From Vicinamibacterales bacterium (GTDB lineage Bacteria > Acidobacteriota > Vicinamibacteria > Vicinamibacterales > JAKQTR01), in the NCBI GenBank assembly GCA_025456345.1, contig JALOKU010000001.1:147758-211757 (forward strand): a stretch of 64,000 nt of DNA, written 5' to 3'. Below, piece after piece: positions 4,459 through 57,685 of this stretch. The position numbers and the translations under genes were made by a program. How positions within the stretch are numbered: position 1 is the stretch's first letter; every line of letters begins with the position of its first letter. The notes below the pieces were generated by a model that had not been told where the DNA came from, ran no database searches, and saw only the letters and a list, made by a program, of their open reading frames with translations.

Positions 4459-5691
4459 ATGAGTCAACCGAAACCCTCGCTGAGCGACCTCCGGATTGAG
4501 GACCATGCGCGCTATGGCGGCTCAGGGCGCATGGGACTCGGGTTGCTCGTCATCGTCGTCGCCGCCGTGGCTGGCGCGGCGCTGTGGTATTGGTTCCGCG
4601 CCCCGCGCCCGGTTCCAGTCCGGGTGGCGCCGGTGGTCGAGACCGGCGCCGCGTCTGGCAGCAGCGGCCCGGCGGTGTTGAATGCCTCCGGCTACGTCAC
4701 GGCCCGCCGGCGGGCGACCGTCTCCTCCAAGATGACCGGCAAGGTCGTCGACGTGATGGTCGAGGAAGGCATGGCGGTCAAGGCGGGCCAGGTGCTCGCC
4801 CGCCTCGACGACACGACGCTGCGGCGCTACTTCGAACTCGCGGAAGCCGAACTCGGCGCATCGCGGGGGACGGCCGCCGAAACCGAGGTGCGGCTCAAGG
4901 AAGCCCGCCAGACGCTCGATCGTGCGCGCGCGCTGGTCCGCGACGGCATCTCCGGCCAGGCGGATCTGGATCGGGCCGAGGCCGAGGTTGACGCGCTCAA
5001 GGCCCGGCTCGACTTGACCCGCGAGCAGGTGACAGTAGCGGAGCGGCAGGTGGCGCTGCGCCAGTCGGACCTGGACGACACGGTGATTCGCGCGCCGTTT
5101 GCCGGCGTCGCGCTCTCGAAGGACGCGCAGCCCGGCGAGATGGTGTCGCCGGTGTCGGCGGGCGGCGGGTTCACGCGCACGGGCATCTCGACGATTGTCG
5201 ACATGTCGTCGCTCGAGATCGAAGTGGACGTGAACGAGAGCTTCATCAACCGCGTCACGCCCGGCCAGAAGGTCGACGCCACGCTCGACGCGTATCCGGA
5301 CTGGCGCATTCCCGGCCACGTCGTCGCGATCGTGCCCACGGCCGACCGTCAGCGGGCCACCGTGCTGGTCCGCATCGGGTTCGAGAAGCTCGACCCGCGG
5401 ATCCTGCCGGACATGGGCGTGAAGGTGGCCTTCCTGGGGGCGGCGGAGCCGGCGGCGGGTGCCTCTCCGGCGCGTCCGAGGTTCTCGATCCCGAAAGCCG
5501 CGGTCCGGACGGATCAGGGGCAGTCCATCGTGTTCGTCATCGTGGGCGATCGCGTAGAGCGCCGGGCGGTCCGCACGGGCGACGCGAAGGGCGACCAGAC
5601 GGAAATCGTGAGCGGCCTCGCGTTGGGCGAGCGGGTCGTGGTGGAGGGCCCGCCCGACCTGGCCGAAGGCCGTGCGGTCATCATCCGCTAA
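4459..5691 (+). CDS. efflux transporter periplasmic adaptor subunit (HlyD/MacA-like)
   Basis: N-terminal TM anchor, then LNASGYVTARRRATVSSKMTGKVVDVMVEEGMAVKAGQVLARLDD (lipoyl/barrel-sandwich signature), coiled-coil hairpin and beta-barrel region. Followed by ABC ATPase and permeases. Confidence 0.85.
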   Translation: MSQPKPSLSDLRIEDHARYGGSGRMGLGLLVIVVAAVAGAALWYWFRAPRPVPVRVAPVVETGAASGSSGPAVLNASGYVTARRRATVSSKMTGKVVDVMVEEGMAVKAGQVLARLDDTTLRRYFELAEAELGASRGTAAETEVRLKEARQTLDRARALVRDGISGQADLDRAEAEVDALKARLDLTREQVTVAERQVALRQSDLDDTVIRAPFAGVALSKDAQPGEMVSPVSAGGGFTRTGISTIVDMSSLEIEVDVNESFINRVTPGQKVDATLDAYPDWRIPGHVVAIVPTADRQRATVLVRIGFEKLDPRILPDMGVKVAFLGAAEPAAGASPARPRFSIPKAAVRTDQGQSIVFVIVGDRVERRAVRTGDAKGDQTEIVSGLALGERVVVEGPPDLAEGRAVIIR

Positions 5692-5700
5692 CCGGGGAGC

Positions 5701-6414
5701 ATGTCCATGAGTGGTGCCGGGCCGGCCGACGGCGTTCTCGTGACTGTTCGCAACGTGCACAAGGAGTTCCGCCGCGGCGGCGAGCGGATCGACGTGCTGC
5801 AGGGGCTCAGTCTCGACATCCCGCGCGGGGACTTCCTGGCGCTGATGGGGCCGTCAGGGTCGGGGAAGTCGACACTGCTGAACCTGCTCGGCGGCCTCGA
5901 TCGCCCGACGCGGGGTGAGGTCGAGATCGGCGGCCAGCGCATCGACCAGATGTCCGGTGGCCAGCTTGCCGCCTGGCGCGCGCGGCACATCGGGTTCGTG
6001 TTCCAGATGTACAACCTCCTGCCGGTGCTGACGGCCGAGCGGAACGTGGAACTGCCGCTGCTGCTCACCAGCCTCGGCGCCGCGAAGCGCAAGCAGCACG
6101 TCGCGACGGCGCTGGGCGTGGTCGGCCTGACCGATCGCGCGAAGCACTACCCGCGCCAGCTCTCGGGCGGCCAGGAGCAGCGCGCGGGCATCGCGCGGGC
6201 GCTGGTCACCGATCCGACGCTGCTGCTCTGCGACGAACCGACGGGCGATCTCGACCGCAAGTCGGGGGACGAGATTCTCGACCTGCTGCAGGGCCTGAAC
6301 CGCCTGCACGGCAAGACCATCGTCATGGTCACGCATGATCCCCATGCCGCGGCGAGGGCGAAGCGCGTACTCTACCTCGACAAGGGCGTCCTCGTGCGGG
6401 AGCCGGTCGTATGA
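5701..6414 (+). CDS. ABC transporter ATP-binding protein (MacB/LolD type)
   Basis: Walker [10 protein letters not shown], signature LSGGQEQR, Walker [13 protein letters not shown]. Confidence 0.9.
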
Positions 6415-7565
6415 AGTACCTGCCCCTCGTGTGGCGGAACCTCATCCGGCGCAAGACCCGCACGACGTTCACCGTCCTGTCGATCGTCGTCGCGTTCCTG
6501 CTGTTCGGCATCCTCGCGGCGCTGAACATGGCGTTCGGCATGGGCATCGAGCTGGCGGGCAACGACCGGCTGATCATCCAGCACAAGGTGTCGATCATCC
6601 AGTTGCTCCCCGAGAGCTACGGCGCGCGCCTCGAGACGACGCCCGGCGTCACCGACGTCCTCCACCAGACCTGGTTTGGCGGCATCTACCAGAAGCCGAG
6701 CAACTTCTTCATGCAGTGCCCGGTGCATCCGGCGACGCTGCTGGCGCTGTATCCGGAGTACCTGCTGCCCGAGGACCAGACGAAGGCGTGGCTCAGCGAT
6801 CGCACGTGCGCCATCGTGGGCCGCCAGACGGCGGACCGCTTCGGCTTCAAGGTTGGCGATCGCATTCCCATCCAGGCGACCATTTGGCGCAAGCGGGACG
6901 GCAGCAGCAACTGGGAGTTCAACCTCTGCGGCATCTTCGACGGGGACAAGAAGGGCGTCGACACCACGCCGTTCTTCTTCAACTACGAGTACTTCGACGA
7001 GGCGCGGCAGTTCGGCCAGGGCCAGGTCGGCTGGTACGTGATCCGCATCAACGATCCCGCCGCGGCGCCGCAGATCGCCGAGCGGATCGACGCGCAATTC
7101 GCCAACTCGCCCGCCGAGACCAAGACGACGACGGAGAAGGCGTTCCTGCAGGCGTTCGCGAAGCAGGTGGGCGACATCGGTGCGATCATCCGCGGCATCG
7201 TCACCGCCGTGTTCTTCACGATCCTTCTGGTGGCCGCGAACACGATGGCCCAGTCGGTGCGCGAACGCACGAGCGAACTGGCCGTCCTCAAGACCCTGGG
7301 CTTCTCGGACGGCCTCGTGCTCGCCCTCGTGCTCATCGAGTCGTGCGCGATTGCCGTCCTGGGCGGCGCCATCGGCCTGGGCCTCGCCTGGCTCATCACG
7401 CAGGGCGGCGACCCGACGGGCGGCATGCTGCCGGCGTTCTTCCTGCCGACGGCCGACCTGGTGCGGGGCGCGATCTTCGCGCTCGCCCTCGGCCTCGTGG
7501 CGGGCATCATGCCGGCGGTGCAGGCGATGCGGTTGCGCATCGTCGATGCGTTGAGGAGGAGTTAG
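6411..7565 (+). CDS. ABC transporter permease, FtsX/MacB-like
   Basis: ATGA overlap with the ATPase gene. N-terminal TM, large periplasmic domain and C-terminal FtsX-type 3-TM bundle. Confidence 0.85.
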   Translation: MKYLPLVWRNLIRRKTRTTFTVLSIVVAFLLFGILAALNMAFGMGIELAGNDRLIIQHKVSIIQLLPESYGARLETTPGVTDVLHQTWFGGIYQKPSNFFMQCPVHPATLLALYPEYLLPEDQTKAWLSDRTCAIVGRQTADRFGFKVGDRIPIQATIWRKRDGSSNWEFNLCGIFDGDKKGVDTTPFFFNYEYFDEARQFGQGQVGWYVIRINDPAAAPQIAERIDAQFANSPAETKTTTEKAFLQAFAKQVGDIGAIIRGIVTAVFFTILLVAANTMAQSVRERTSELAVLKTLGFSDGLVLALVLIESCAIAVLGGAIGLGLAWLITQGGDPTGGMLPAFFLPTADLVRGAIFALALGLVAGIMPAVQAMRLRIVDALRRS

Positions 7566-45072: not shown

Positions 45073-46242
45073 ATGAAGCCGACGTTTCTGATCTCGGCCG
45101 CGCTGGTTGCCGCGGCCGCCGCTGGATGCTCGCGCGGCGAGGCCCCGAAGGTTCCGGCCGGGCCTCCCGTTGCCGTCTCGGTTGCGGCTGCCGCCGAGCG
45201 GGAGCTTGTCACGCCGTTCGAAGCCGGGGGCGTTGTCCGCGCCCAGCGCGTGGCGGTGATCGTCAGCCGGATCATGGCCGACGTGCGGGCGGTGCCCGTC
45301 AAGGCCGGCGACCGCGTCCGGGCCGGGCAGACCCTCGTGCTGCTCGACGGGCGGGAACTGCAGGCGCATCGGACGCGGGCGTCGGCGAGCCAGACGGCGG
45401 TGACGCAGTCCACCGCCCTTGCGGAAGCCGACCGGCAGGCCGCGGAGGCCGGTCTGGCGCTCGCGCGTCTCACACATCAGCGGATGGCCGACCTCAAGGC
45501 CAAGAACTCGGCCACGCAGGGCGAACTCGACGAGGCCGTCGCCACCCTGCGCGGGGCCGAGGCCCGCATGAGCGTGGCGGAGGCGCGCGTGGCCGAAGCC
45601 CGCGCGTCGGTCGCGTCGGCAACGGCCGGCGCGTCGGCTGCCGACGTCGCGGCCTCGTATGCGACGCTCACCGCGCCCTTCGACGGGGTCGTCACCGAAA
45701 AGAGCGTGGACCCGGGCAACATGGCGAGCCCCGGCCAGCCCCTCGTCACGGTCGAAGACGACAGGAGCTTTCGTCTCGAGGTGCGGCTCGACGCGTCGCG
45801 GGCGGCGTTCGTGCACGTGGGTGATGAGGTGCGCGTGCGGCTCGACGGCGCCGCGGCGGACGCGGCCGGCCGGGTCGCCGAGGTGGAGCGCGTGGTCGAC
45901 CCGGGGTCGCACGACTTTCTCGTGAAGGTCGACCTGGCGCCGGCCCCGCCGCTCCGATCGGGCATGTACGGACGCGCCGCGTTTCGAGGTGCGGCGCGAC
46001 AGGGCCTCGCCGTGCCCGAGGCGGCCGTCGTCCGCCGGGGCCAGATCTCCAGCGTGTTCGTCGTCGATGCCGACAACCATGCCCGCCTCAGGCTGGTGAA
46101 TGCCTCGGAGCCGGCCGACGGCCATGTCGAGATCCGCGCCGGGCTGCGAAGCGGTGAGCGCGTGGTGCTGTCGCCGCCGCCGGCGCTGGTGGATGGCTCG
46201 CCGGTGACCGCCGGGCCTGCGGCCCCGGGGAGCGTCCGATGA
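45073..46242 (+). CDS. efflux RND transporter periplasmic adaptor subunit (lipoprotein)
   Basis: Lipobox [35 protein letters not shown] lipoyl-like motif. Coiled-coil hairpin. Confidence 0.85.
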
Positions 46243-49200
46243 CCCGCCCCTACGGCGTGGCTGGCCGCCTGGCCGCCGCGTTCATCGACTCGAAGCTGAC
46301 GCCCCTGTTCCTCGTGGCGTCCCTCGCCCTGGGTGCCCTGGCCGTGGTGGCCCTGCCGCGCGAGGAGGAGCCGCAGATCATCGTGCCGATGATCGACGTG
46401 ATGGTGCAGATGCCCGGCGCGTCTCCCGCCGAGGTCGAACAGCGCGTCACCAGGCCCATGGAGAAGCTGCTGTGGGAAATCCCCGGCGTCGAGTACGTCT
46501 ACTCGACCTCCAGCCCTGGCCTCTCCATGGTGATCGTCCGCTTCTACGTCGGGCAGAACGAAGAGCAGGCCATCGTCAGGCTGAACCAGAAGCTGTTCGC
46601 CAACATGGACATCATCCCGCCCGGCGTGTCGGCGCCCATGGTGAAGCCGCGGTCGATCGACGACGTGCCGGTGATGGCGCTGACGCTCTGGGGCGAGCGC
46701 TATTCCGACGTGGAGTTGCGGCGGGTCGCCGAGCAGCTGCACGACGTCATCAAGGAAGTCCCGGACGTGTCGGAGGTGACCATCGCCGGCGGGCGCCGCC
46801 GCCAGATCACCGTCGAGATCGATCCGGCCCGCCTCGCTTCCTACGGGATCGACCCGCTGGGTGTGCAGCGCGCGATCCAGGCCGCGAACATGCGCCAGCG
46901 CGCGGGCGAAGTCGTCAGCGGCGGCCGCAGCGAGATCGTCGAAGCCGGCGCCTGGATCGACAGCGTGGCGCGCCTCGACAACGTGGTCGTCGACACGCGC
47001 GGCGGGCGCTCGGTGTGGCTGCGCGACGTGGCCGCCGTCCGCGACGAGGATGGGGAGCCGACGTCGTACGTCGCGCACCACACGCCCGGCGGACGGACGT
47101 TTCCGGCCGTGACGATTTCCATCGCGAAGCGCAAGGGCGTCAACGCCATCGACCTCACGCGGCGGATTTCCGCCAAACTCGACACCGTCCGCGGCGTCCT
47201 GGTGCCGTCCGACCTCGAGATCACCGTCACCCGGAACTACGGCGACACCGCCGCGCACAAGTCGAACGAGCTGCTGTGGCACATGTTCCTGGCGGTGGTC
47301 TCGGTCGGCATCCTCATCTGGCTCACCCTCGGCCGGCGCGAGGCGGCTGTCGTGCTGGTGGCCATCCCGGTGACGCTGGCCCTCACGCTGCTGGTGTTCT
47401 ACCTCTACGGCTACACGCTCAACCGCATCACGCTGTTCGCCTTGATCTTCTCGATCGGGATCCTGGTCGACGATGCCATCGTCGTGGTGGAGAACATCGT
47501 GCGCCATGCCCGGCTGGCGACGGGGGAAGAGGGAGCCTTCAGCGCGCTGATCGTGAAGGCCGTCGACGAGGTCGGCAACCCGACGATCCTGGCAACCCTC
47601 ACGGTGATTGCCGCCATCCTGCCGATGGCGTTCGTCGGCGGCCTGATGGGGCCCTACATGCGGCCCATCCCGGTCGGCGCGACGGCGGCCATGGTGTTCT
47701 CCCTCATCGTGGCCTTCGTGGCCACTCCGTGGGCGGCCAAGCGCCTCCTGACGAAGCCGACGCACCACGATCACGGGCAGGAAGACCGGCTCACGGTGCT
47801 CTACCGTCGCTGGATGGGGCGCCTCATCGTGTCGCCGACCATGCGCGCCCTCTTTCTCGGGGGAGTGGCCGCGATGCTCCTGGCGGCCGTGGCGCTGGTC
47901 CCGCTCAAGCTCGTCACGGTGAAGATGCTCCCGTTCGACAACAAAAGCGAGTTCCAGGTCATTGTCAATATGCCCGAGGGAACGCCGCTCGAAGACACGG
48001 CGCGGGTCACCGCGAAGCTGGCCCGGGAGACGCTCCGCATCCCGTCGGTGACCAGCGTCCAGAGCTACGTCGGCGCGGCGTCGCCCTACAACTTCAACGG
48101 CCTCGTGCGCCACTACTTCCTCCGCCGCGCGCCGCACCAGGCGGATCTGCAGGTGAACCTGCTCCCCAAGGAGGAGCGGTCCGAGCAGAGCCACGCCATC
48201 GCCAAGAAGGTGCGGGAGGCGCTCGCGCCAATCGTCAGGGAAGCCGGCGGGCGGATCCAGGTGGCGGAAGTGCCGCCGGGGCCGCCGGTGCTGCAGACGC
48301 TCGTGGCCGAGGTGTATGGGCCCGATGCCGCCCGGCGCCTCGAGGTCGCCCGGACGGTCAAGGACATCTTCAGCCGCACCCCCGGCGTGGTCGATGTCGA
48401 CTGGTACGTCGAGTCGCCGCAGTCCAAGATCGTCGTCGACGTGGACGCGCAGAAGGCCGCGGCGGCCGGTGTGAACGCGGCGGCGCTGGCCTCGCTGGCG
48501 CGCATGGCCGGCGCCGGTGAAATCGCCGGGATCCTGCACGACGACCAGGCCCGGAGCGATGTGCCCATCGTGCTGCAGCTGCCGCGGGCCGTCCGTGGAT
48601 CGCTGGACGCGGTCAAGAGCGTCAGGATCATGGGCGCCTCGCCAGCCGCCCTCGGCGAACTCGCGGTCGTCAGCCGGGCGGTTGAGCCGCCCAGCGTGTA
48701 TCACAAGAACCTGCAGCCGGTGACGTACGTGCTCGGCGACGTCGCCGGCGCCTTCGAGAGCCCCGTCTACGCCATCTTCCAGATGAACGAAGCGTTGGCC
48801 AAGGTTCAGCTGCCCGAGGGGTACCGCTTCGAGGTCTTCAACGCCGCGCAGCCGTTCGACAGCACGAAGTACGCGATGAAGTGGGACGGCGAGTGGCACA
48901 TCACCTACGAGGTCTTCCGTGACCTCGGCCTGGCGTTCGCGGCGGTGCTGCTGCTGATCTACATCCTGGTCGTCGGGTGGTTCCAGTCGTTCCTGACGCC
49001 CATCACCATCATGGTGGCCATCCCGTTTTCGCTCGTGGGCATCCTCCCCGCGCACGCCGCCATGGGCGCGTTCTTCACCGCCACCTCCATGATCGGGTTC
49101 ATCGCCGGTGCCGGCATCGTCGTGCGGAACTCGATCATTCTCGTCGACTTCATCGAACTGCGCGTGCGCGACGGGATGCCGCTCGAAGAGGCCGTGGTCG

Positions 49201-49427
49201 ATGCGGGCGCCGTGCGGTTCCGCCCGATGGCCTTGACGGCCGCCGCCGTTGTCGTCGGCTCCGCCGTCATCCTCTTCGACCCGATCTTCCAGGGGCTGGC
49301 CATCTCGCTGATGGCCGGCGAAGTGGCCTCGCTGCTGCTGTCGAGAGCCACGGTTCCCGTGCTCTTCTACATCACGGCGAAACGCCAGGCGCAGAAGGCC
49401 CTGGCGGCTCAGCCAGACGCCGCATAG
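46239..49427 (+). CDS. efflux RND transporter permease subunit (AcrB/CzcA superfamily)
   Basis: 1062 aa. ATGA overlap with the adaptor gene. 12-TM two-fold repeat with large periplasmic loops. Typical N-terminus ...[33 protein letters not shown]. Confidence 0.93.
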
Positions 49428-49447
49428 GCGGAAAGGAACGGCGCACC

Positions 49448-50167
49448 ATGTGGCACTATCCGCCGGCGAGCATCCTGGTCGCCGTCGATTTCGGGAACGC
49501 CTCGGCCCGGGCGCTCCGCGTCGCCGCGGCGCTCGCCGCGAAACACGGCTCGGCGATGACCGCCCTGCACGCGGAGACGCTGGACGTGCCGCCCTACTTC
49601 ACGCATGAGCAGTTGAAAGCGGTCGAGCGGAATCGTGCGCAGGTCCGCCGCGAGGCCGAGCGCTACCTCGAGCACTTCGTCCGGCCGTTGGCGCCGCTGG
49701 CGGCGGTCTCGCTCGTGGACGGGCCGGCGGTCGAGGCCGTGCTCGCGGCCGCGGCGCACCACGACCTGCTGGTGCTGGGGACGCACGGCCGGCGCGGACC
49801 GAGCCGGTGGTGGATGGGGTCGGCGGCTGAGCGGATCGTCCGCGACAGCCCCGTGCCTGCCCTGGTCGTGCGTGCGGAACCGGCCCCGACGTCCGGCGAG
49901 CAGGTATTCGCGCGTCCCGTGGCGGTTGCGGGTCCGGAGTTCCACGGCGAGGCGCTCAGCTACGCGCACGCGATCGCGGGGAGTTTCGGCGGCACGCTGG
50001 CCGAGAAGTCCGTGTCGTCGCTCGACGACTTGAAATGCGATCCGGGCGCCACGCTCATGGTTGTCGCCACGGGGCGCCACCACGGGAGCGGCTGGTTCGG
50101 CGAGACGGCGGAGCGTCTTGTCAGGACCTGTGCGCTGCCCATGCTGTTCGTGCCGAACCGCGGCTGA
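49448..50167 (+). CDS. universal stress protein (tandem Usp-like domains)
   Basis: ILVAVDFGNASARAL...DLLVLGTHGRRGPSRWWMGSAAERIVRDSPVPALVV is the UspA pattern. A second, weaker Usp-like half follows. Confidence 0.8.
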   Translation: MWHYPPASILVAVDFGNASARALRVAAALAAKHGSAMTALHAETLDVPPYFTHEQLKAVERNRAQVRREAERYLEHFVRPLAPLAAVSLVDGPAVEAVLAAAAHHDLLVLGTHGRRGPSRWWMGSAAERIVRDSPVPALVVRAEPAPTSGEQVFARPVAVAGPEFHGEALSYAHAIAGSFGGTLAEKSVSSLDDLKCDPGATLMVVATGRHHGSGWFGETAERLVRTCALPMLFVPNRG

Positions 50168-50201
50168 TGTCCGGCCGCAAGACGTTGAAATGGAGGGGGT
50201 T

Positions 50202-50390
50202 ATGACGGTTGATCGCGCGCTTCGCCTGATTGCGGGAGCCTTTGTCTTCGCCAGCGTCATGCTGGGGATGTTCGTGCACCCCAATTTCTACTGGTTTACG
50301 GCCTTTGTCGGGGTGAACCTCCTCCAGTCGGCGTTCACCAACTGGTGCCCCATGATGGCGATACTCAGGAAGGCCGGTTTGCGTGGATGA
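50202..50390 (+). CDS. DUF2892 (YgaP-like) small membrane protein
   Basis: GGAGGGGG SD 4-5 nt before the ATG. MTVDRALRLIAGAFVFASVMLG...FVGVNLLQSAFTNWCPM matches the DUF2892 core. Confidence 0.7.
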   Translation: MTVDRALRLIAGAFVFASVMLGMFVHPNFYWFTAFVGVNLLQSAFTNWCPMMAILRKAGLRG

Positions 50391-50418
50391 CCCAGCCGCG
50401 GCGAAGGGGTCTAACGGG

Positions 50419-50426
50419 TGTATAAT
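50419..50426 (+). promoter_or_regulatory. candidate -10 element (TG-TATAAT) for the lipoprotein/LDT cluster
   Basis: Perfect TATAAT at 50421-50426 preceded by TG, 64 nt upstream of ATG 50490. No convincing -35. Followed by the leader hairpin CGAGGC-GTGAG-GCCTCG (50441-50457) and SD GAGGAG (50477-50482). Confidence 0.3.
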
Positions 50427-50489
50427 CAAAGGGATCCGTTCGAGGCGTGAGGCCTCGGAGTGGAGCAGTCATCATAGAGGAGACAGTCG

Positions 50490-51077
50490 ATGCGCAATCT
50501 GAAGTTCCTGGTTCTCACCCTGGGTCTCGCCCTGACCGTCGCCGCGTGCGGCGCGCCGCCGAAGGCCGACCTCGATGCCGCCAAGGCGGCTCTGGATTCC
50601 GCGGTCGCCGCTGGCGCCGCCGAGTATGCCGCTCCGGCGATGAAGGCCATCGAGGACGCCCAGGCTGCCCTGGATGCCGAGCTGAAGGCCCAGGATGGCA
50701 ACTGGTTGAAGTCCTACACGAAGGCGAAGGAGCTCGCCGCTGCGGTGAAGACCGCGGGTGAGAAGGCCGCCGCCGACGCCGCCGCCGGCAAGGAACTGGC
50801 GAAGAACGAAGCAACCGCCGCCATCGGCGAGGTGAAGACGCTGCTGACCGACGCCCAGGCGCTGCTCGACAAGGCGCCGAAGGGCAAGGGCACCGCGTCT
50901 GACATCGAGGCGATGAAGACCGACCTGGTGACCGCCGGCACGGCCATCACCGAGGCCGAGACCGCGCTGGCCGCCGGCAAGTTCCTCGACGCCAAGGCCA
51001 AGGCCGAGTCCGCCAGGACGACCGCCAACACCGTGAAGACGGCCGTTGAGGCCGCCATGGCCGCGAAGAAGCGGTAA
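50490..51077 (+). CDS. Ala/Lys-rich helical lipoprotein with two DUF4398-like repeats
   Basis: Lipobox LALTVAAC. The mature protein has very few Gly/Pro and is A/K/E/D/T-rich. AGAAEYAAPAMKAIEDAQAALDAEL is DUF4398-like. C-terminus ...AAMAAKKR. Confidence 0.75.
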   Translation: MRNLKFLVLTLGLALTVAACGAPPKADLDAAKAALDSAVAAGAAEYAAPAMKAIEDAQAALDAELKAQDGNWLKSYTKAKELAAAVKTAGEKAAADAAAGKELAKNEATAAIGEVKTLLTDAQALLDKAPKGKGTASDIEAMKTDLVTAGTAITEAETALAAGKFLDAKAKAESARTTANTVKTAVEAAMAAKKR

Positions 51078-51108
51078 ACGCGATCTCTTGCCTCACCTGA
51101 TCCCCGGC

Positions 51109-52278
51109 GTGACCCGCCGCCGCGCGTGGCGGCGGGTTGCCTTCGGAGTGGCCGCACTCGCGCTGGTTGCGGCGGTCGCCGGGGTCATCCACACCATTGC
51201 CTCGCGCCGCGAGGCCCTCATGGCCGCGGCGGCGGAGTCGGCGCGCGTGGCGGTTGCGGAGGCCCGCGCGGCCGGCGCGGCCGTCTGGGCGCCCAGCGAG
51301 CTGCAGGACGCCGAGCAGGCGTCCCGCGACGCCCTCACGGCGCAGCGCGTCGAGCAGACCCGCCTCTGGCCGATTCCCGAGGCGGCGCGCGTGGTCGAGG
51401 GATTCGGCGCGGCGGCGACGAGCGCGCGCACCGCCAGCGCCGTTGCCGAGGAGCGCCGTTCGAGAGCGGAAGCGTCCGCCCGGGCGCAGATCGAGACGGC
51501 GCACCGGCTCGTCTCCGCGAGCGAATCGCTGGCGGCGAAACTGCGCGTCGGCAAGGAGCGCCGCAACCTGCTGGCGGCGGCGAGGCTGGCTGTCGAGGCG
51601 GCGCGCGTGTACCAGCGCGCCGGCGACTACCGCAACGCCACGGTCAACGCCCTCCGCGCCCAGGAACTCAATGCCCAGGTGCAGGATCACGCGGCCAGCG
51701 TCGTCGCGCGCTATGCCGATGCCGAGACCATCGCCCGGTGGCGGCGCTGGATCGCCGAGACCATCGAGTGGTCGAAGCGCGAGGGCCGGGTCGCGATCGT
51801 CGTGTTCAAGGAGTCGCACCGGCTGACGGTGTACCGGCGCGGTGCGGCGGTCGCCACCTACGACGTCGACCTGGGCTTCAACTGGACCGCCGACAAGCTG
51901 CACGAGGGAGACGGAGCCACACCGGAAGGCCGCTACCGGGTCGTCGCGCGGCTCGGCAAGCAGGCGTCGATCTACTACAAGGCACTCCTGCTCGACTACC
52001 CGAACGCCAGCGACCGTGCGGAGTTCGCCAGCGCCCGGCGCAGCGGCGAACTGCCCGCTGGTGCGAGAATAGGCGGGTTGATCGAGATACACGGCGGGGG
52101 CGGCCGCAGCCAGGACTGGACCAGCGGGTGCGTCGCCCTGGCCAACGGCGACATGGACCTGGTGTTCGAACGTGCGGGCGTCGGCACGCCCGTGACCATC
52201 GTGGGGAGCGACGACTATGGAGCCATCGCCGAGTTTGCCGGCCGGCAGCGCGCCGCCGGCCGCGGCAAGCGGCCCTGA
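51109..52278 (+). CDS. YafK/DpaA-type L,D-transpeptidase-fold protein, membrane anchored, with DUF4398-like N-domain
   Basis: GTG 51109 chosen (alternatives TTG 51088, ORF start 51046). TM anchor VAFGVAALALVAAVAGVI. ARAAGAAVWAPSELQDAEQA is DUF4398-like. The catalytic domain HEGDGATPEGRYRVV...IYYKALLLDYPNASDRA...IEIHGGGG....WTSGCVALAN parallels E. coli YafK. Confidence 0.8.
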   Translation: MTRRRAWRRVAFGVAALALVAAVAGVIHTIASRREALMAAAAESARVAVAEARAAGAAVWAPSELQDAEQASRDALTAQRVEQTRLWPIPEAARVVEGFGAAATSARTASAVAEERRSRAEASARAQIETAHRLVSASESLAAKLRVGKERRNLLAAARLAVEAARVYQRAGDYRNATVNALRAQELNAQVQDHAASVVARYADAETIARWRRWIAETIEWSKREGRVAIVVFKESHRLTVYRRGAAVATYDVDLGFNWTADKLHEGDGATPEGRYRVVARLGKQASIYYKALLLDYPNASDRAEFASARRSGELPAGARIGGLIEIHGGGGRSQDWTSGCVALANGDMDLVFERAGVGTPVTIVGSDDYGAIAEFAGRQRAAGRGKRP

Positions 52279-53011
52279 CGCAGCCGGGCGACGGCCGCCG
52301 GCGGGCCCGCAGGCGGCGCCGGGGCGCACACCCCGAGCCGGACGTGGTGTCTGGTTCAACCGCCGCACGGTGGCCGTCACGGCCGGCGCCGTGCTGCTGG
52401 CCGCAGTACTGCTCAGGGGGACCGGGTACCGGTACGAGCCGTACGCCGAGCAGCCCCTTGCCGTGTCGAGCGACGTGCCGTCCGACGCCCGTCCGCTCGA
52501 GCAGTTCACGGCGCGGCTGCGCAGCCGCCAGCGCACGCTGGGGGCACGGCTCGACGCCCTCATGCCGAAGGGCGTCTACATCGTCATCGACCAGACGCAG
52601 AACCGGCTCTATCTGAAGCGGGGGGACGGCACGCTGCTGCAGGCCGTCTGCTCGACCGGCTCGGGCATGGTGCTGCGGGAGAGCGGCGGCAAGAAGCGCG
52701 AGTGGGTCTTCGACTCGCCGCGCGGCCGCTTCGAGGTCCGCTCGATGAGCCGCAACCCCGTGTGGCACAAGCCGGACTGGGCCTTCGTGGAGGAATCGCA
52801 GCCGATTCCCACGAACCCTGCCGACCGGCTCGACTACGGCACGCTCGGCGAGTATGCGCTCTACTTCGGCGACGGATTCATGATTCACGGCACGCTCTAC
52901 GAACGCCTGCTGGGACGCGCGGTGTCTCACGGGTGCATCCGCGTCGGACGCGACGATCTGCGCAAGGTCTGGGCGAACGCCAGGGTTGGCACCCAGATCT
53001 TCATCTACTGA
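52217..53011 (+). CDS. L,D-transpeptidase (YkuD domain), membrane anchored
   Basis: TM anchor TVAVTAGAVLLAAVLL. YIVIDQTQNRLYLKRGDGTLL... and the catalytic motif FMIHGT...LGRAVSHGCIRV. Overlaps the previous gene by 62 nt. Confidence 0.85.
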   Translation: MEPSPSLPAGSAPPAAASGPDAAGRRPPAGPQAAPGRTPRAGRGVWFNRRTVAVTAGAVLLAAVLLRGTGYRYEPYAEQPLAVSSDVPSDARPLEQFTARLRSRQRTLGARLDALMPKGVYIVIDQTQNRLYLKRGDGTLLQAVCSTGSGMVLRESGGKKREWVFDSPRGRFEVRSMSRNPVWHKPDWAFVEESQPIPTNPADRLDYGTLGEYALYFGDGFMIHGTLYERLLGRAVSHGCIRVGRDDLRKVWANARVGTQIFIY

Positions 53012-53027
53012 CGCGGGTGGGCCCAGC

Positions 53028-53798
53028 ATGAGAGCCTCGCGCATCCGGACGTTCGCCGCGGCGGCCGCGCTCCTTGCCGTGATCGGCACGGCTGCCGCCT
53101 GCCAGCGAGGCGCGGCGCCGGCGGCCACCTCCGATCCCCGCTCCGAGGCCGCCCGCCTGCAGCGGACCAACGCCCAACTGCAGAAGCAAATCGAGCTGGC
53201 GGCCGGCAAGCAGTTCTACCTCGTCCTCGATCCGGCGACCTCCGGCCTCACGCTGATGCTGAAGGGCGCGCCCCTGCAGCGCTTCACGGTGCGCGGCCTG
53301 CAAGTGGGCCATCCCCGTGTCGCGTGGGTGAGCGCGCGCGACCCGCGCCACGTGCAGAGCGTCATCTGGTCGGGCGGCGAACTGGATCCGCCGAGGCAGA
53401 TCGACCGGCTGGTGATTCAGTCCGCCGGCCCCGGGAAGGAGGCGTCCGAATCGACGCCGCCGCCCATCCCGCCGACGCCAGAGGAACTCTATCCGGTACC
53501 GTCGCGATACCACGTGAGGTTCGCCGACGGGCTGTCCGTGGAAATCCTGCCGCGTGAAGCTGACGCGTCGGTCGGCCGGTGGGCGCACGCGCGCGCCGCG
53601 ATGGCGGAGCGGTGGGGCGACATCCGCTCCGCGCTCCGCAGCTCCGATCGCGATGCGATCCGGCTGCGCATCACGCTGGATCCGAACGACGCACAGTCGT
53701 TCTATCGCTCGCTTCCGCCGGCCGTGCGCCTCATCGTGCTCGACGGCGAGGTCGAGCCGGCTCAGCCTGCCCCCGCGGACGCGGGAGCGGGGCGGTAG
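53028..53798 (+). CDS. probable lipoprotein, LDT-like N-terminal pattern without catalytic His/Cys
   Basis: Signal plus AAAC. Short coiled segment (RLQRTNAQLQKQIELAA), then KQFYLVLDPATSGLTLMLKGAPLQRFTV resembles the first strands of YkuD domains. No HG...GC motif anywhere. Confidence 0.6.
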   Translation: MRASRIRTFAAAAALLAVIGTAAACQRGAAPAATSDPRSEAARLQRTNAQLQKQIELAAGKQFYLVLDPATSGLTLMLKGAPLQRFTVRGLQVGHPRVAWVSARDPRHVQSVIWSGGELDPPRQIDRLVIQSAGPGKEASESTPPPIPPTPEELYPVPSRYHVRFADGLSVEILPREADASVGRWAHARAAMAERWGDIRSALRSSDRDAIRLRITLDPNDAQSFYRSLPPAVRLIVLDGEVEPAQPAPADAGAGR

Positions 53799-53840
53799 GT
53801 CCGCCGAGGGACCCGCCCGGACGGCGGGTCGGAGGAGTCC

Positions 53841-55412
53841 ATGCGAGCAGGGCCGCGCGTCAGTCGTGTCAGCATCCTGAACGATGTGCTCGGCCCGGTC
53901 ATGCGCGGGCCCTCGAGCTCCCATACCGCCGGCTCCTACCACATTGCGAAAATCGTGACGGGGCTGCTTGGCGCGCCGCCGGTGGCCGCCGGCTTCGCCT
54001 TCGATCCGGCCGGCTCCTACGCGCAGGTCTACTGGCAGCAGGGTGTGGACCGCGCCTTCGCCACGGCGCTCATGGGCTGGGAGCTGACCGACGACCGTTT
54101 CGCGGCCTCGCTGGATCTGGCGGCGGAAGCCGGTCTCGAGATTCGCTTCGACGTCCGGCCGCTGGCGAAGCCCGACCACCCCAACACGGTCGAGATCGCC
54201 CTGCGCGCCGCCGACGGGCGCACGCTGGCGGCGACGGCCCGGTCGATTGGCGGCGGCGCCGTCGAAGTCGTCGAGGTGGAAGGCTGGGCCGTCCACCTCA
54301 CGGGCTACACGTGGGAAGCGCTGGTCGAGACCACCGCCGCGCACGCCGACCGCATCGTCTCGGCGCTCTCGGCGGACGGTCAGCTTGCTGCCGGCGCCGA
54401 TCGCCGCGAGCGCGGCGGCCGCGTGCTGGTCGACGTCAGGCGGCTGGCGCCTCTCGAGGCCGCCGCCAGGGCGGCCCTTGAGGATCTCGGCGCCGCGGCG
54501 ACGCTGCGCGAAGCGCCCCCGATTGCGTTTGTGAAGCGCGGGCGCCAGTTGTTCCAGAGCGGCGCCGAGATGCTGGCGCTGGCCGGGGCGCACGGATGGT
54601 CGCTCGGGCGCGCAGCCCTCGCCTACGAAGCCGAACTGCTTGGGCTCTCCGAGGCGGCCGTGATCGACGAGGTGTCCCGGCGGTTCGACATCATGCAGGC
54701 CGCCGTCCACCTGGGACTGGATCCGGCGGCCCCGTCGATGCAGTTGCTGGCGCCCAGCGCCCGGGCCATTGTCGACGCCGACGCCGCGGGGCGTCTGCCC
54801 CTCGGCGGGCTGCACACCCGCGCGGCCGCCAGGGCGATGGCGGTCATGCACGTCAACGGCGCGATGGGCGTCGTGTGCGCCGCGCCGACCGGCGGCTCTG
54901 CGGGCGCCGTGCCCGGCGTGGTCGTCACGCTGGCCGAGGAGAGGGCCCTCCCGAGAGCGGGGGCCGCCATGGCCCTGCTCGCCGCCTCCGCCATCGGCGT
55001 CATCCTGGCCGAGCGAGCCACCTTCGCCGCCGAAGTGGCCGGGTGCCAGGTGGAAATCGGCGCCGCCGGCGCGATGGGAGCCGCGGCGGTCGTCGAGGCC
55101 GCGGGCGGAAGCGCGGCGCACGCCGCCGATGCGGCCGCCATCGCGTTCCAGAACTCGATGGGGTCGGTCTGCGACCTGGTGGGCGGCATGGTCGAGATTC
55201 CCTGCCACACCCGCAATGCCGTGGCGGCCTCGAGCGCCTTCGTGTGTGCCGACCTCGTCGTCGGCGGCTACGTGAACCCGATCCCGCTCGATGAGACCAT
55301 CGACGCGGTCTATGCCGTCGGCCGCATGATGCCCACCGAACTGCTCTGCACGTCCAAGGGCGGGCTTGCCGTCACCCCCAGCGCCCTGAGGCTGGTCGCC
55401 AGGCGACGCTGA
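53841..55412 (+). CDS. sdaA: L-serine ammonia-lyase, iron-sulfur-dependent (fused beta-alpha)
   Basis: GGAGGAG SD. ILNDVLGPVMRGPSSSHTAG N-terminal signature. Central ACT-like segment. Alpha domain with CAAPTGGSAGAVPG. Confidence 0.9.
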   Translation: MRAGPRVSRVSILNDVLGPVMRGPSSSHTAGSYHIAKIVTGLLGAPPVAAGFAFDPAGSYAQVYWQQGVDRAFATALMGWELTDDRFAASLDLAAEAGLEIRFDVRPLAKPDHPNTVEIALRAADGRTLAATARSIGGGAVEVVEVEGWAVHLTGYTWEALVETTAAHADRIVSALSADGQLAAGADRRERGGRVLVDVRRLAPLEAAARAALEDLGAAATLREAPPIAFVKRGRQLFQSGAEMLALAGAHGWSLGRAALAYEAELLGLSEAAVIDEVSRRFDIMQAAVHLGLDPAAPSMQLLAPSARAIVDADAAGRLPLGGLHTRAAARAMAVMHVNGAMGVVCAAPTGGSAGAVPGVVVTLAEERALPRAGAAMALLAASAIGVILAERATFAAEVAGCQVEIGAAGAMGAAAVVEAAGGSAAHAADAAAIAFQNSMGSVCDLVGGMVEIPCHTRNAVAASSAFVCADLVVGGYVNPIPLDETIDAVYAVGRMMPTELLCTSKGGLAVTPSALRLVARRR

Positions 55413-55543
55413 CCCCCCACGCCGGCCAGCGCGCCCCGAGGCCTCCAGTTCTCGCCGGTTCAGGCCGATAAAGAAACAAACGGGGCCTCCCCTCGCGGGC
55501 GCACGCCTGCCCCGGGGAGAGGTCCGACCGGGCATTCCGGAGC

Positions 55544-57685
55544 ATGGGCCAGCTGATGCCAAACGAGGCGAACGCCGCGCGGTCACCCAACGAGGCGAGA
55601 GTCCTGGACTTCGCCCGCGCGTTCCGTTCGGCGGCGCGTGCCGTCGGCTTCTACCCGCCGACGCATCAGGCCGTGGTTGCGGCGCTCGACCAGGTGGCTG
55701 CGGCCGCGCGTGGCGCGACATCAGGCGGGCCGGTCTGCCTCACGATCCTGCCGCAGGCGTTTCTGGCCGGCGGCGTCCCCATCGATACGTCCGAGACCGT
55801 CGTGGCCGATTTCGCCGCGCTGTGCCATCGTCACGGCGTCGGGGCCGTCAACCTCGACGGCCGGGCGACACCGGAGGCATGGCAGGCCTTCTTCATGCTG
55901 CTGGCGCGCAGGCCTGAGGAGGTGCGCGGCGCGGGCGGGATCCAGCGCCAGTGGCAGGCCCTCCGGCACACGAGCCCGGCGATCCTCGAGATCGACTTCG
56001 GCGCGCTCCTGCGGGGAAAGGTCGGGGGCGACTATCTGGAGCTGGCCGCCGTCATCAGCCATTACCTGGAAACGGCCGGCGTCGGCGGATCGATTCTGGA
56101 CGATCCCTGCGCCGCGCTCCGCCGGGCCATCGACAACGCCCCCGACGAGCCCCAGGCGATTGCCGCGGTCCTGCGGGAGTTGCGCGCGGCAGCTCAGCTG
56201 ACCTGGACGCAGCCCGAGCAGTTCAACGACGTGTTCCGCCGGGCGGCGGCGGTGGGTGAGTTCCTCACCGAAGGGCTGATGGCCGGACTCCTGGAACGCC
56301 GCGGCACGCCCGACGCCACCGTCGGCACCCTCGACGTGGTGCGCGCGCTTGTCGAGCGCATGCCGGATGCCACCGTCTCGACGTTCCTCTCGAAAGCCCT
56401 GGGCGAGGCGGGTACCGCGCCTGCCCGGCTCGTCGAGATGTTCCGGTCGCTCGTGCCGAGCCCCGACCGGCGGCGGCTGATCGTCAGCGAGGCCCAGGAC
56501 GTCACGCTGGAGAGCAATGTGGTTGAGCAGTGGGCCGAGTTCGAGCGCGATCTCGAGGCCCACGTCGACCGCCGCTTCATCTCGGATCAGTACGGCAACG
56601 AGCTGCACGAGGCGCAGGACCGCGGTGTCGGTGCCGCGCTGGCCGCCGACGATCCCCCGGAACGGCTGGCGGCCTGGGTCGCCAGCATCAGCGACGAGGC
56701 CGTACGGGAACTCGATCTCCGGCTGCTCGGCGATCTCGTCCACAGCGAGACCGATGCCGGGAGGCTTCGGAAGGTCCTGGACATCCTGCAGGCGCACGTC
56801 CTCGAGGCGGCCGCCGCGGGCGAGTGGGGCGATGTGGCGCGGACGCTCGCCGCGATCCAGTCCGCCGGGACGCCGTCGGGCGATCGCACCCGGCAGGTGC
56901 TGGCCGCGGAGACGCTGCAGAAGCTCGGCGCTTCGCCGGCTGCGGAGTCGGCGCTGGCGGTGCTTCCCGGCGCTGCACCGGCCGACGCTGACCTGCTCGT
57001 CGCGGTCCTGGCGGCCATCGGCGCGCCGCTGATGCCGGCCGTGGCGCGGCGCTGGGCGGCCGAGCGCCAGCCGCCGGCCCGAGCCCGCCTCGAGAGCGCC
57101 GTCGCCGCCGCCGGCAAGGCGGGCCGCGACGGGCTCAGGCGCCTGCTGGCGTCGGACGCCGAGCCGGGCGAGACTCGCGTGGCGGCGATTCGCCTTCTCG
57201 AGCTCACGCCGGGCATCGAGCATCTGCCCGCGCTCGAGGCCGCCCTGTCCGACGCCCACGAGGGCGTCCGCGCCGAGGCCTTCAAGGCCCTGTCAGCTTC
57301 GGGCGCCGAGCGCGCCCCCGAGATCCTGGCCCGCGGCATTGCCCGCGCGGATGCCGCCGCGCAGATGTCGCTGCTCACCCGGCTGACGGCCCAGGGCGGT
57401 CGCGGTCTTCCCGTGGTCCTGCGCCTTGTCCCGCAGGTCGATCCGCAGACAGCGCCGCTGCCTGTCTGCCTCTCCCTCATCGAGGTGCTCGAGCGGGCCG
57501 GCGGCCCGCAGGCCGAGGTGCTGCTGGCGGGCCTGGCCGGCCGGACGCACTGGCGCACGCCGCGCCGGACCTGGCGGATCCGCTCGGCCGCGAACGCGGC
57601 GCTCCGCGCGGTCCGGCGCGGCGGCGGCGAGGCCGCGGGCCGCGAAACCGTGCCGCCGCCGGCAGACTCCTCCGGAGGCGATTGA
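55544..57685 (+). CDS. hypothetical large protein: HD-GYP-associated N-terminal module plus C-terminal HEAT-like repeats
   Basis: 713 aa. The N-terminus (…FRSAARAVGFYPPTHQAV…GVGAVNLDGRATPEAWQAFF…) parallels the N-terminus of the downstream HD-GYP protein. The C-terminal third has HEAT/PBS-lyase-like repeats (ALSDAHEGVRAEAFKALSASG). The stop overlaps the next start (TGATG). Confidence 0.7.
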   Translation: MGQLMPNEANAARSPNEARVLDFARAFRSAARAVGFYPPTHQAVVAALDQVAAAARGATSGGPVCLTILPQAFLAGGVPIDTSETVVADFAALCHRHGVGAVNLDGRATPEAWQAFFMLLARRPEEVRGAGGIQRQWQALRHTSPAILEIDFGALLRGKVGGDYLELAAVISHYLETAGVGGSILDDPCAALRRAIDNAPDEPQAIAAVLRELRAAAQLTWTQPEQFNDVFRRAAAVGEFLTEGLMAGLLERRGTPDATVGTLDVVRALVERMPDATVSTFLSKALGEAGTAPARLVEMFRSLVPSPDRRRLIVSEAQDVTLESNVVEQWAEFERDLEAHVDRRFISDQYGNELHEAQDRGVGAALAADDPPERLAAWVASISDEAVRELDLRLLGDLVHSETDAGRLRKVLDILQAHVLEAAAAGEWGDVARTLAAIQSAGTPSGDRTRQVLAAETLQKLGASPAAESALAVLPGAAPADADLLVAVLAAIGAPLMPAVARRWAAERQPPARARLESAVAAAGKAGRDGLRRLLASDAEPGETRVAAIRLLELTPGIEHLPALEAALSDAHEGVRAEAFKALSASGAERAPEILARGIARADAAAQMSLLTRLTAQGGRGLPVVLRLVPQVDPQTAPLPVCLSLIEVLERAGGPQAEVLLAGLAGRTHWRTPRRTWRIRSAANAALRAVRRGGGEAAGRETVPPPADSSGGD

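Follow-up and report, generated by a model that had tools for sequence, protein, structure and literature searches.

A conserved four-gene cluster of Vicinamibacterales as a candidate system for reversible attachment of a rod-like lipoprotein to peptidoglycan

In Escherichia coli, the L,D-transpeptidases (LDTs) LdtA, LdtB and LdtC attach the lipoprotein Lpp to peptidoglycan, and DpaA (also YafK or LdtF) detaches it. Lpp is limited to a subclade of Gammaproteobacteria (bioRxiv 10.1101/2021.05.31.446380), and no substrate is known for the DpaA-like enzymes of Lpp-less Acidobacteria and Deltaproteobacteria (PMC8263019). We asked whether such a substrate is encoded by the four-gene cluster at 50490-53798 of a 64,000-nucleotide stretch of DNA from a Vicinamibacterales bacterium (contig JALOKU010000001.1, positions 147,758 to 211,757; the whole stretch is called the window hereafter). 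An earlier note, made from this sequence alone, had proposed that a helical lipoprotein (g1), a YafK-like enzyme (g2), a YkuD enzyme (g3) and a degenerate LDT-like lipoprotein (g4) form a self-contained attach/detach system, in a phylum where no such tether is described. The last point stands: we found no description of the four-gene module in the literature, and the LDT-attached proteins collected in a December 2025 review are all proteobacterial, with none outside Proteobacteria (PMC12729407).

The listing of open reading frames (ORFs) confirmed that the cluster consists of four co-directional genes, all on the plus strand:

50490-51077, plus strand: g1, a lipoprotein of 195 residues with a signal peptide, lipobox LTVAAC, Cys20 and the tail KKR.
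51109-52278, plus strand: g2; its longest ORF begins at TTG 51046, and the other starts are TTG 51088 and GTG 51109.
52217-53011, plus strand: g3, a YkuD L,D-transpeptidase, whose true start is possibly downstream of 52217.
53028-53798, plus strand: g4, with an alternative start at 52986; Cys25 lies at 53100-53102.

For g2, the starts TTG 51088 and GTG 51109 are the more plausible (MTRRRAWRR, then 22 hydrophobic residues), and for g4 the most likely start is ATG 53028 (MRASRIRTF...GTAAAC). The genes had been described as separated by 17 nucleotides or less. They are indeed tightly packed; the figure itself depends on the starts chosen, with 10 to 31 nucleotides between g1 and g2, and 16 between g3 and g4. 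The closest relatives of the module proteins were found in metagenome-assembled genomes (MAGs) of Vicinamibacterales and other Acidobacteriota.

The linkage of these genes was followed in both directions. A scan with the g1 alignment, using one genome per species, returned 67 loci. Three of them matched the first repeat of g1 only (fusions to TonB_C, see below) and were left out of the synteny counts, and a locus was taken as evaluable when enough DNA was available alongside the anchor gene. The next gene was g2 in 63 of 63 evaluable loci, followed by g3 in 60 of 60, and a g4-type gene was present in at least 54 genome loci. Conversely, a scan of metagenome contigs anchored on g2 was examined for the best 80 of 544 matches. 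Among these, g1 was found upstream in 49 of 49 evaluable contigs, g3 downstream in 47 of 47 and g4 in 35 of 35; as these are the closest 80 of 544, more distant g2-like genes may lack a g1 partner. The adjacency of lipoprotein, YafK-like and YkuD genes, which the earlier note had put forward for a synteny test, was invariant in more than 100 loci, a stronger result than its author had proposed. Chance co-location is ruled out by the synteny seen in both scan directions.

The module is widespread. Within Acidobacteriota, loci were found in Vicinamibacterales, Terriglobia, Aminicenantes, Holophagales and Polarisedimenticolaceae, and other phyla with the module are Nitrospirota, Desulfobacterota, Zixibacteria, Krumholzibacteria, Eisenbacteria and Methylomirabilota (Methylomirabilales), about seven in all. 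No gene beyond g1 to g4 was conserved across phyla in the loci compared. The module was also present in MAGs labelled 'uncultured Eubacteriales' (L015, L029, L031, L042, L054, L061 and L064). Their sequences are nearest to Aminicenantes-type loci, and this name was probably given provisionally or by mistake.

The candidate substrate is g1. Its N-terminus, MRNLKFLVLTLGLALTVAAC, and its C-terminus, AAMAAKKR, agree with the earlier description of a lipoprotein with lipobox LTVAAC. The lipobox Cys20 was invariant in 128 of 128 diverse relatives, and Pro is conserved at position 24. The family is large (641 close matches; at 50% identity, 1054 clusters with E≤1e-3 and 456 with E≤1e-10), and its members are nearly all 195 to 205 residues long. 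An AlphaFold2 (AF2) model of g1 (mean predicted local distance difference, pLDDT, 85.8; predicted template modelling score, pTM, 0.72) contains helices at residues 25-40, 48-68, 77-127, 135-161 and 165-194. We read this secondary structure as two probable three-helix repeats in tandem, with the long helix 77-127 common to both. The N and C halves aligned in equal helix register, albeit weakly (hhalign probability 22%). A sequence-profile search of the PDB with g1 was empty, and Foldseek of the model against the PDB returned nothing significant, only generic helical bundles (best E 0.78). The best local superposition was with a designed three-helix bundle (TM-score 0.76, root mean square deviation 2.4 Å over 98 columns), which was not significant either (Foldseek E 2.7).

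The earlier note had recognized DUF4398-like repeats in g1. The window's protein has no match to Pfam DUF4398 (PF14346); 9 of 28 relatives do match over residues 27-110, all below the gathering score of 27.9 (best 20.5 bits, E 4e-4). To our knowledge, DUF4398 has no known function. Neither did we find Pfam LPP (PF04728), in g1 at E≤0.1 or among the 28 relatives at E≤1. Given this and its different architecture, g1 is ruled out as an Lpp homologue, and the Lpp-type coiled coil that had been imagined for it gives way to the multi-helix bundle predicted by AF2.

Two side observations concern the g1 family. In other lipoproteins, encoded without LDT genes, a TonB_C domain (Pfam E 3e-20) is fused to the first repeat, residues 1-100 (L041, L052, L066 (about 6001-6660); P0237), and the repeat looks like a reusable periplasmic spacer. 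In one Deltaproteobacteria MAG (L034), tandem g1 paralogues at 5337-5939 and 5989-6585 lie upstream of g2 (E 1e-10 and 1e-27).

Two elements of g1 could offer a lysine to a transpeptidase:

51066-51074, plus strand: basic tail K193-K194-R195 of g1, KKK or KKR in close relatives and basic family-wide.
50874-50891, plus strand: loop A129-P130-K131-G132-K133-G134 of g1, with K133 (50886-50888) as the candidate acceptor amine.

The tail had been the site favoured at the outset. In the window's clade it reads AAKKK or AAKKR almost always, and the last residue across genome loci was K in 30 and R in 29. In 132 diverse relatives, the terminal residue was R in 40, K in 24, G in 18, S in 15 and A in 12, and tails free of Lys (ARSGRG, ARTRRS, GRPRG) were found in loci that keep the full module. 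A conserved C-terminal Lys is therefore restricted to the close Vicinamibacterales clade, 44 of the 132 relatives having no Lys in their last 10 residues. From the alignment, the tail appears conserved as a basic patch and not as a lysine, so that the earlier note's own expectation of conserved C-terminal Lys residues failed. The same counts rule out a C-terminal Lys as a family-wide conserved attachment site.

The loop behaves differently. In 128 diverse relatives, A129 was conserved at 93%, P130 at 96%, G132 at 90% and G134 at 80%, and K133 was K in 119 and R in 6 (93% K, 98% K or R). It is the family's one near-invariant Lys; K and R swap freely in the other basic columns of g1. In the 48 g1 genes reached through g2, a sample not chosen on the loop motif, the residue was Lys in all 48, and it is kept even in the diverged loops APRGKEG, APKTKDT and CRRQPKDFKKD. 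The loop is not conserved in the g1-like domain of g2 described below. Because K133 is the most lysine-specific column of g1, we favour it as the acceptor, and this conservation makes it more likely than the tail to be the attachment site. If helices 105-127, 135-161 and 165-194 form an up-down-up bundle, the loop (128-134) and the C-terminus would lie at the same end. In one subclade (P0205, L143, L147) the mature protein contains just two Cys, one as last residue (...KINC, ...KIKC) and one immediately ahead of the K133 loop. This pair may form a disulfide that ties the C-terminus to the loop, which fits their being neighbours, though as a single evolutionary event.

The transcript may also treat g1 differently from its neighbours, as suggested by the element that follows it:

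51109-51140, plus strand: GC-rich stem-loop of 13 bp directly after g1 (RNA fold), covering the probable GTG start of g2.

Local hairpins (z<-2) followed the g1 stop in 24 of 60 loci (including L062, L005, L009, L020, L034, L037 and L039), compared with 4 of 60 after g2 and 8 of 58 after g3. Some of them are canonical terminators with a U-run, such as GGGCACGGCGT-ATGG-ACGCCGTGCCC-TTTTTTT in L062. That such hairpins and terminators are specific to the 3′ side of g1 suggests, though it does not prove, an excess of g1 over g2 to g4, as for a structural protein or a substrate. The hairpin would then damp expression of g2 to g4.

The second gene encodes an enzyme carried on a g1-like stalk. Residue numbers of g2 are counted from the longest ORF (start 51046), and its parts are the following:

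About 51136-51201, plus strand: N-terminal anchor of g2, transmembrane helix or signal.
About 51214-51708, plus strand: g1-like helical domain of g2.
51790-52200, plus strand: YkuD domain of g2, hydrolase type, with K284, H349, C362 (52129-52131) and A364.

Pfam YkuD matched residues 249-385 (E 5e-18, 66 bits for a cut-off of 23.4). The only PDB match was 8ikr_A, deposited as 'YkuD domain-containing protein', which we take, from the aligned sequence and residue numbering, to be E. coli YafK/DpaA. The alignment reproduced the YafK motifs quoted in the earlier note, GD..(S/T)PEG.Y and YYKA...(F/Y)PNA.DRA. In 62 g2 orthologues H349 and C362 were invariant, as were K, TPEG.Y, YPN..D, EIHG and T.GC, and in the motif T-S-G-C362-V-A364 the residue at Cys+2 was Ala in at least 90%. 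An Arg at this place, two residues past the catalytic Cys, is absent from DpaA-like enzymes and L,D-carboxypeptidases, which have Ala or Asn instead (PMC8263019). In addition, the invariant K284 aligns to DpaA Lys83 and the YYKA tyrosine to Tyr109, two residues essential for DpaA amidase activity (PMC10653827); as Lys83 is also found in L,D-carboxypeptidases, its equivalent does not separate the two activities. By its active-site signature, g2 is DpaA-like, without being a DpaA equivalog.

The stalk of g2 is related to g1. The mature g1 family aligned with residues 50-245 of the g2 family over 163 columns (hhalign probability 99.15%, E 3.8e-19), in line with the anchor, helical segment and YafK-like domain that had been recognized in g2. 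By profile comparison, g2 thus carries its YafK-like domain on a g1-like rod, behind a membrane anchor. The anchor itself varies. At least 29 of 62 orthologues, about half, are lipoproteins whose lipobox is followed by x-x-P-P as in g1 (L025, L037, L057 and L063, for example), and in the window's clade a hydrophobic helix replaces the lipobox. The anchoring mode of this putative hydrolase appears to have switched between lineages.

Gene g3 corresponds to a transpeptidase:

About 52364-52411, plus strand: anchor of g3.
52574-53005, plus strand: YkuD domain of g3, with H224, C240 (52934-52936) and R242.

Pfam YkuD matched residues 120-263 (75.2 bits for a cut-off of 23.4, E 1e-20), and the best PDB match was 4lzh_A, an L,D-transpeptidase. 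The motif H224...S237-H-G-C240-I-R242 belongs to a pattern, HGT...(S/T)HGCIR, conserved in 59 orthologues, all 59 of which have an N-terminal hydrophobic anchor and none a lipobox. By these motifs g3 is a textbook enzyme of the transpeptidase type, with Arg at Cys+2, as had been seen earlier.

The identity of g4 is less clear. None of its 300 relatives has a Pfam domain, g4 itself has no Pfam match, a PDB profile search was empty, and the AF2 model was poor (pLDDT 50). The gene at the g4 position in other phyla shares the motifs LAK....YF..D, ALEL.DMP..Y.L and DA.ALYW.L.EG...II. In a permissive hhalign run, the g4 family aligned end-to-end with the YkuD domain of g3, weakly (probability 52.9%, E 1.4e-4, 136 columns) and with the His and Cys positions replaced; under default settings, the alignment to YkuD covered 29 columns, the first strand only (probability 17%). 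A catalytically dead YkuD-like protein is thus plausible, and the degenerate LDT of the earlier note receives some weak support. Its claim that g4 lacks His is not correct, as His residues are present and what is missing is the HG...SHGC motif. The lipoprotein assignment holds in the window (Cys25); among relatives, only 10 of 45 are lipoproteins, and in most other phyla g4 is a secreted protein.

How would these four proteins work together? The account that we put first, and which we consider quite possible while stopping short of calling it probable, is that g1 is coupled covalently and reversibly to peptidoglycan, g3 making the bond and g2 removing it, probably via K133. In this scheme g1 would be exported and lipid-anchored at Cys20, and its fold would bring the basic tail close to the A-P-K-G-K133-G loop, at the opposite extremity from the lipid. 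The membrane-anchored enzyme g3 would first bind a tetrapeptide stem as a thioester, as is usual for LDTs, and a lysine ε-amine of g1 would then resolve this thioester. This amine would most likely be that of K133, by analogy with an internal lysine of Coxiella LimB, the tail lysines being a possible extra site in the window's clade. With the same rod as g1 and a hydrolase domain of the DpaA/YafK type, g2 would cut the bond between meso-diaminopimelic acid (mDAP) and Lys, and so set the amount of bound g1; g4, probably a dead YkuD-like protein, would serve as a non-catalytic partner. We count for this account the invariant four-gene linkage in about seven phyla, and the pairing of a transpeptidase-type g3 with a DpaA-type g2, which corresponds to attachment by LdtA-C and detachment by DpaA. 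Precedents for non-terminal lysines count for K133. The outer-membrane lipoprotein LimB of Coxiella burnetii is linked to mDAP through internal Lys21, and Legionella Lpg1810 is attached at its Lys-Thr end (PMC12729407), while Dickeya dadantii OutB truncated to Lys219 indicates that a penultimate-type Lys is usable (PMC12274547).

Several points weigh against this account. The C-terminal Lys, hallmark of Lpp and OutB, is by the alignments not conserved in the g1 family, being absent from the last 5 residues in 57 of 132 relatives and from the last 10 in 44. A Gly-rich loop may also keep its Lys invariant for the sake of a binding contact, and the geometry of the g1 tip is deduced from the helix topology of a predicted model. 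For g2, the DpaA equivalog model NF040599 gave 24.4 bits for a cut-off of 365, over model positions 44-124 only, and a 14-residue insertion precedes the His (L3 region); by sequence, the enzyme could alternatively be an L,D-carboxypeptidase or an endopeptidase. For g3, the NCBIfam matches to several E. coli LDT models were weak and similar (PRK10190 35 bits, PRK10260 34, LdtE 29), hence not discriminating, and protein-attaching and 3-3 cross-linking LDTs cannot be told apart by sequence. The paralogy of g1, over its full length, to the stalk of g2 could equally mean that the two proteins assemble, with g1 as regulator or scaffold of the enzyme. The membrane holding g1, the arrangement in three dimensions, the covalent bond and the directions of the two reactions are all things that we infer, from a case built on gene linkage and residue conservation.

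The paralogy just mentioned also leads to the main rival, a non-covalent scaffold or regulator. Here g1 would pair with the g2 stalk or dock g3 or g4, and thereby position or activate a set of enzymes remodelling peptidoglycan, g2 by trimming stems and g3 by 3-3 cross-linking, K133 and the tail contacting an enzyme or the anionic wall or membrane. We hold this to be somewhat less likely than covalent coupling. Full-length homology to the g2 N-domain (probability 99.15%) speaks for it, as does the C-x-x-P-P start that about half of the g2 orthologues share with g1, which places the two lipoproteins probably in the same membrane. So do a g1 tail that keeps positive charge only and not Lys, the use of DUF4398-type helical segments as spacers before wall-binding domains (LipL71 with its LysM, for instance), and the fusion of the first g1 repeat to TonB_C. 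Yet K133 is lysine-specific rather than merely basic, the terminator-like hairpin after g1 suggests an excess over the enzymes rather than a 1:1 ratio, and a transpeptidase-type enzyme paired with a DpaA-type one is most simply explained as making and breaking one bond.

Two other explanations appear much less probable. The one closest to the earlier note makes g1 a strict Lpp analogue, a trimeric coiled coil bound through the C-terminal lysines K193 and K194. The near-universal AAKKK/AAKKR tail of the window's clade would suit it, as would the penultimate lysines used in OutB truncated to Lys219 and at the Lys-Thr end of Lpg1810, and helix topology does put the tail far from the lipid anchor. 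We nevertheless regard it as improbable: the counts of Lys-free tails given above include loci with the full module, terminal R is commoner than K, g1 has no Pfam LPP match, and AF2 gives a self-contained multi-helix bundle (pTM 0.72) and not a single 56-residue helix. It is similarly doubtful that the substrates lie elsewhere, g3 and g2 attaching and detaching β-barrel outer-membrane proteins or remodelling cross-links, with g1 and g4 as spacers or rulers for enzyme height. Alpha- and Gammaproteobacteria use LDTs to attach outer-membrane proteins at the N-terminus, DpaA-like enzymes have been proposed to release these proteins, and g2 does use the same rod as its stalk. Against this, no outer-membrane protein gene was linked to the module in any locus, a free-standing spacer without an enzyme has no obvious role, and the invariance of K133 is left unexplained.

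Returning to covalent coupling through g3 and g2, the more general proposal would be that of an ancient and widespread covalent tether between membrane and peptidoglycan in non-proteobacterial Gram-negative phyla, made of a K133-linked rod, dedicated g3 and g2 enzymes and a g4 adaptor. We advance it more tentatively still, as a possibility. If true, it would be the first self-contained operon with the substrate, the bond-forming and the bond-removing enzyme for attaching a protein to the wall, and it would explain the role of DpaA-like enzymes in Lpp-less bacteria. With a single candidate substrate, a single candidate residue and two enzymes, always encoded together, the module makes two questions directly testable: what DpaA-like enzymes do in the absence of Lpp, and by what means the envelope layers are held together in Acidobacteriota, Nitrospirota and other abundant phyla of soils and sediments. 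Were g1 a scaffold or regulator instead, the module would represent a new lipoprotein-controlled L,D-transpeptidase system. In either case two uncharacterised families are added, a rod lipoprotein of about 200 residues (at least 456 sequence clusters) and the g4 family, both with clear genomic context.

Upstream of the cluster, the following signals were found:

50421-50426, plus strand: TATAAT −10 promoter element, 64 nucleotides 5′ of g1.
50441-50483, plus strand: 5′ untranslated region of g1 (stem-loop and Shine-Dalgarno), within a leader of about 55 nucleotides; the layout is also visible in close relatives.
50441-50457, plus strand: stem-loop CGAGGC-gtgag-GCCTCG in that region, read from the sequence, of putative function.
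50476-50483, plus strand: Shine-Dalgarno AGAGGAGA, read from the sequence, a GGAG-type ribosome-binding site before the g1 ATG.

The TATAAT seen by the earlier note ahead of the cluster is the sole copy in the 64-kb window, both strands counted, whose G+C content is about 70%. It is kept about 70 nucleotides before the start codon in close relatives (L068, L069, L070, L073, L078, L080, L087 and L004). No −35 consensus was found upstream of g1, and a scan of 49800-54400 for consensus promoters and terminators was empty, despite the presence of the conserved −10 element and of the GC hairpin. With its small conserved stem-loop and strong AGAGGAG ribosome-binding site, the g1 leader is reminiscent of the stable leaders that precede envelope genes with high expression.

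The flanks (46239-50390 and 53841-57685) are unrelated to the module. They encode an AcrB/AcrD/AcrF-type transporter, a universal stress protein (Usp), a small YgaP-like membrane protein, a fused alpha/beta L-serine dehydratase and a HEAT-repeat protein of 713 residues, and none of the window's flank genes was conserved beside the module in other genomes. Long ORFs of 538 to 1192 codons lie antisense to the AcrB-type pump, g2 and the serine dehydratase (45477-49055, 50947-52563 and 53001-55721, all on the minus strand). They are the usual artefact of DNA with 70% G+C, and no genes.

Finally, the module can be compared with known systems. The likeness to the Lpp system lies in a lipid-anchored helical protein accompanied by a transpeptidase-type YkuD enzyme and a hydrolase-type one without Arg after Cys; g2 aligned best with DpaA and keeps the Lys83 and Tyr109 equivalents, and g1 is basic at its lipid-distal end. 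A lipobox Cys is common to Lpp and g1. Mature Lpp, however, is a single-helix trimer of about 58 residues, whereas mature g1 has 175 residues, three times as many, in a predicted monomeric bundle of five helices; and in Lpp the C-terminal Lys is bonded to mDAP, whereas g1 ends in Arg and its invariant Lys is internal. DpaA is a compact single periplasmic domain, to which g2 adds an anchor and a g1-like stalk of about 165 residues. In E. coli the genes lpp, ldtABC and dpaA lie apart from one another, but g1 to g4 form an obligate operon, which alone has a fourth, pseudo-enzyme-like gene and occurs in phyla without Lpp.

LimB, taken here from its published description, resembles g1 as a lipoprotein whose internal, non-terminal Lys is joined to peptidoglycan by an LDT. 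It is specific to Coxiella, without operon link to a transpeptidase, and its Lys is near the lipid anchor, for a tether of about 35 Å, in contrast to K133 at the far tip of a long rod. OutB and Lpg1810 likewise extend LDT substrates beyond Lpp and indicate a loose recognition motif; they are proteobacterial, use a C-terminal or penultimate Lys and have no dedicated enzyme operon. DUF4398 lipoproteins such as Leptospira LipL71/LruA (DUF4398 and LysM) also place a helical segment before a wall-interacting element, but g1 has two probable repeats and no globular wall-binding domain. LpoA and LpoB are outer-membrane lipoproteins that activate the penicillin-binding proteins PBP1A and PBP1B. They are the model behind the scaffold alternative, as elongated lipoproteins able to reach a wall enzyme in the other membrane; they are related to g1 neither in sequence nor in fold, their genes lie apart from those of the enzymes, and no enzyme domain is paralogous to them. 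Judged from its sequences, the module would work like Lpp, LdtABC and DpaA, yet with a g1 that stands outside the Lpp family.

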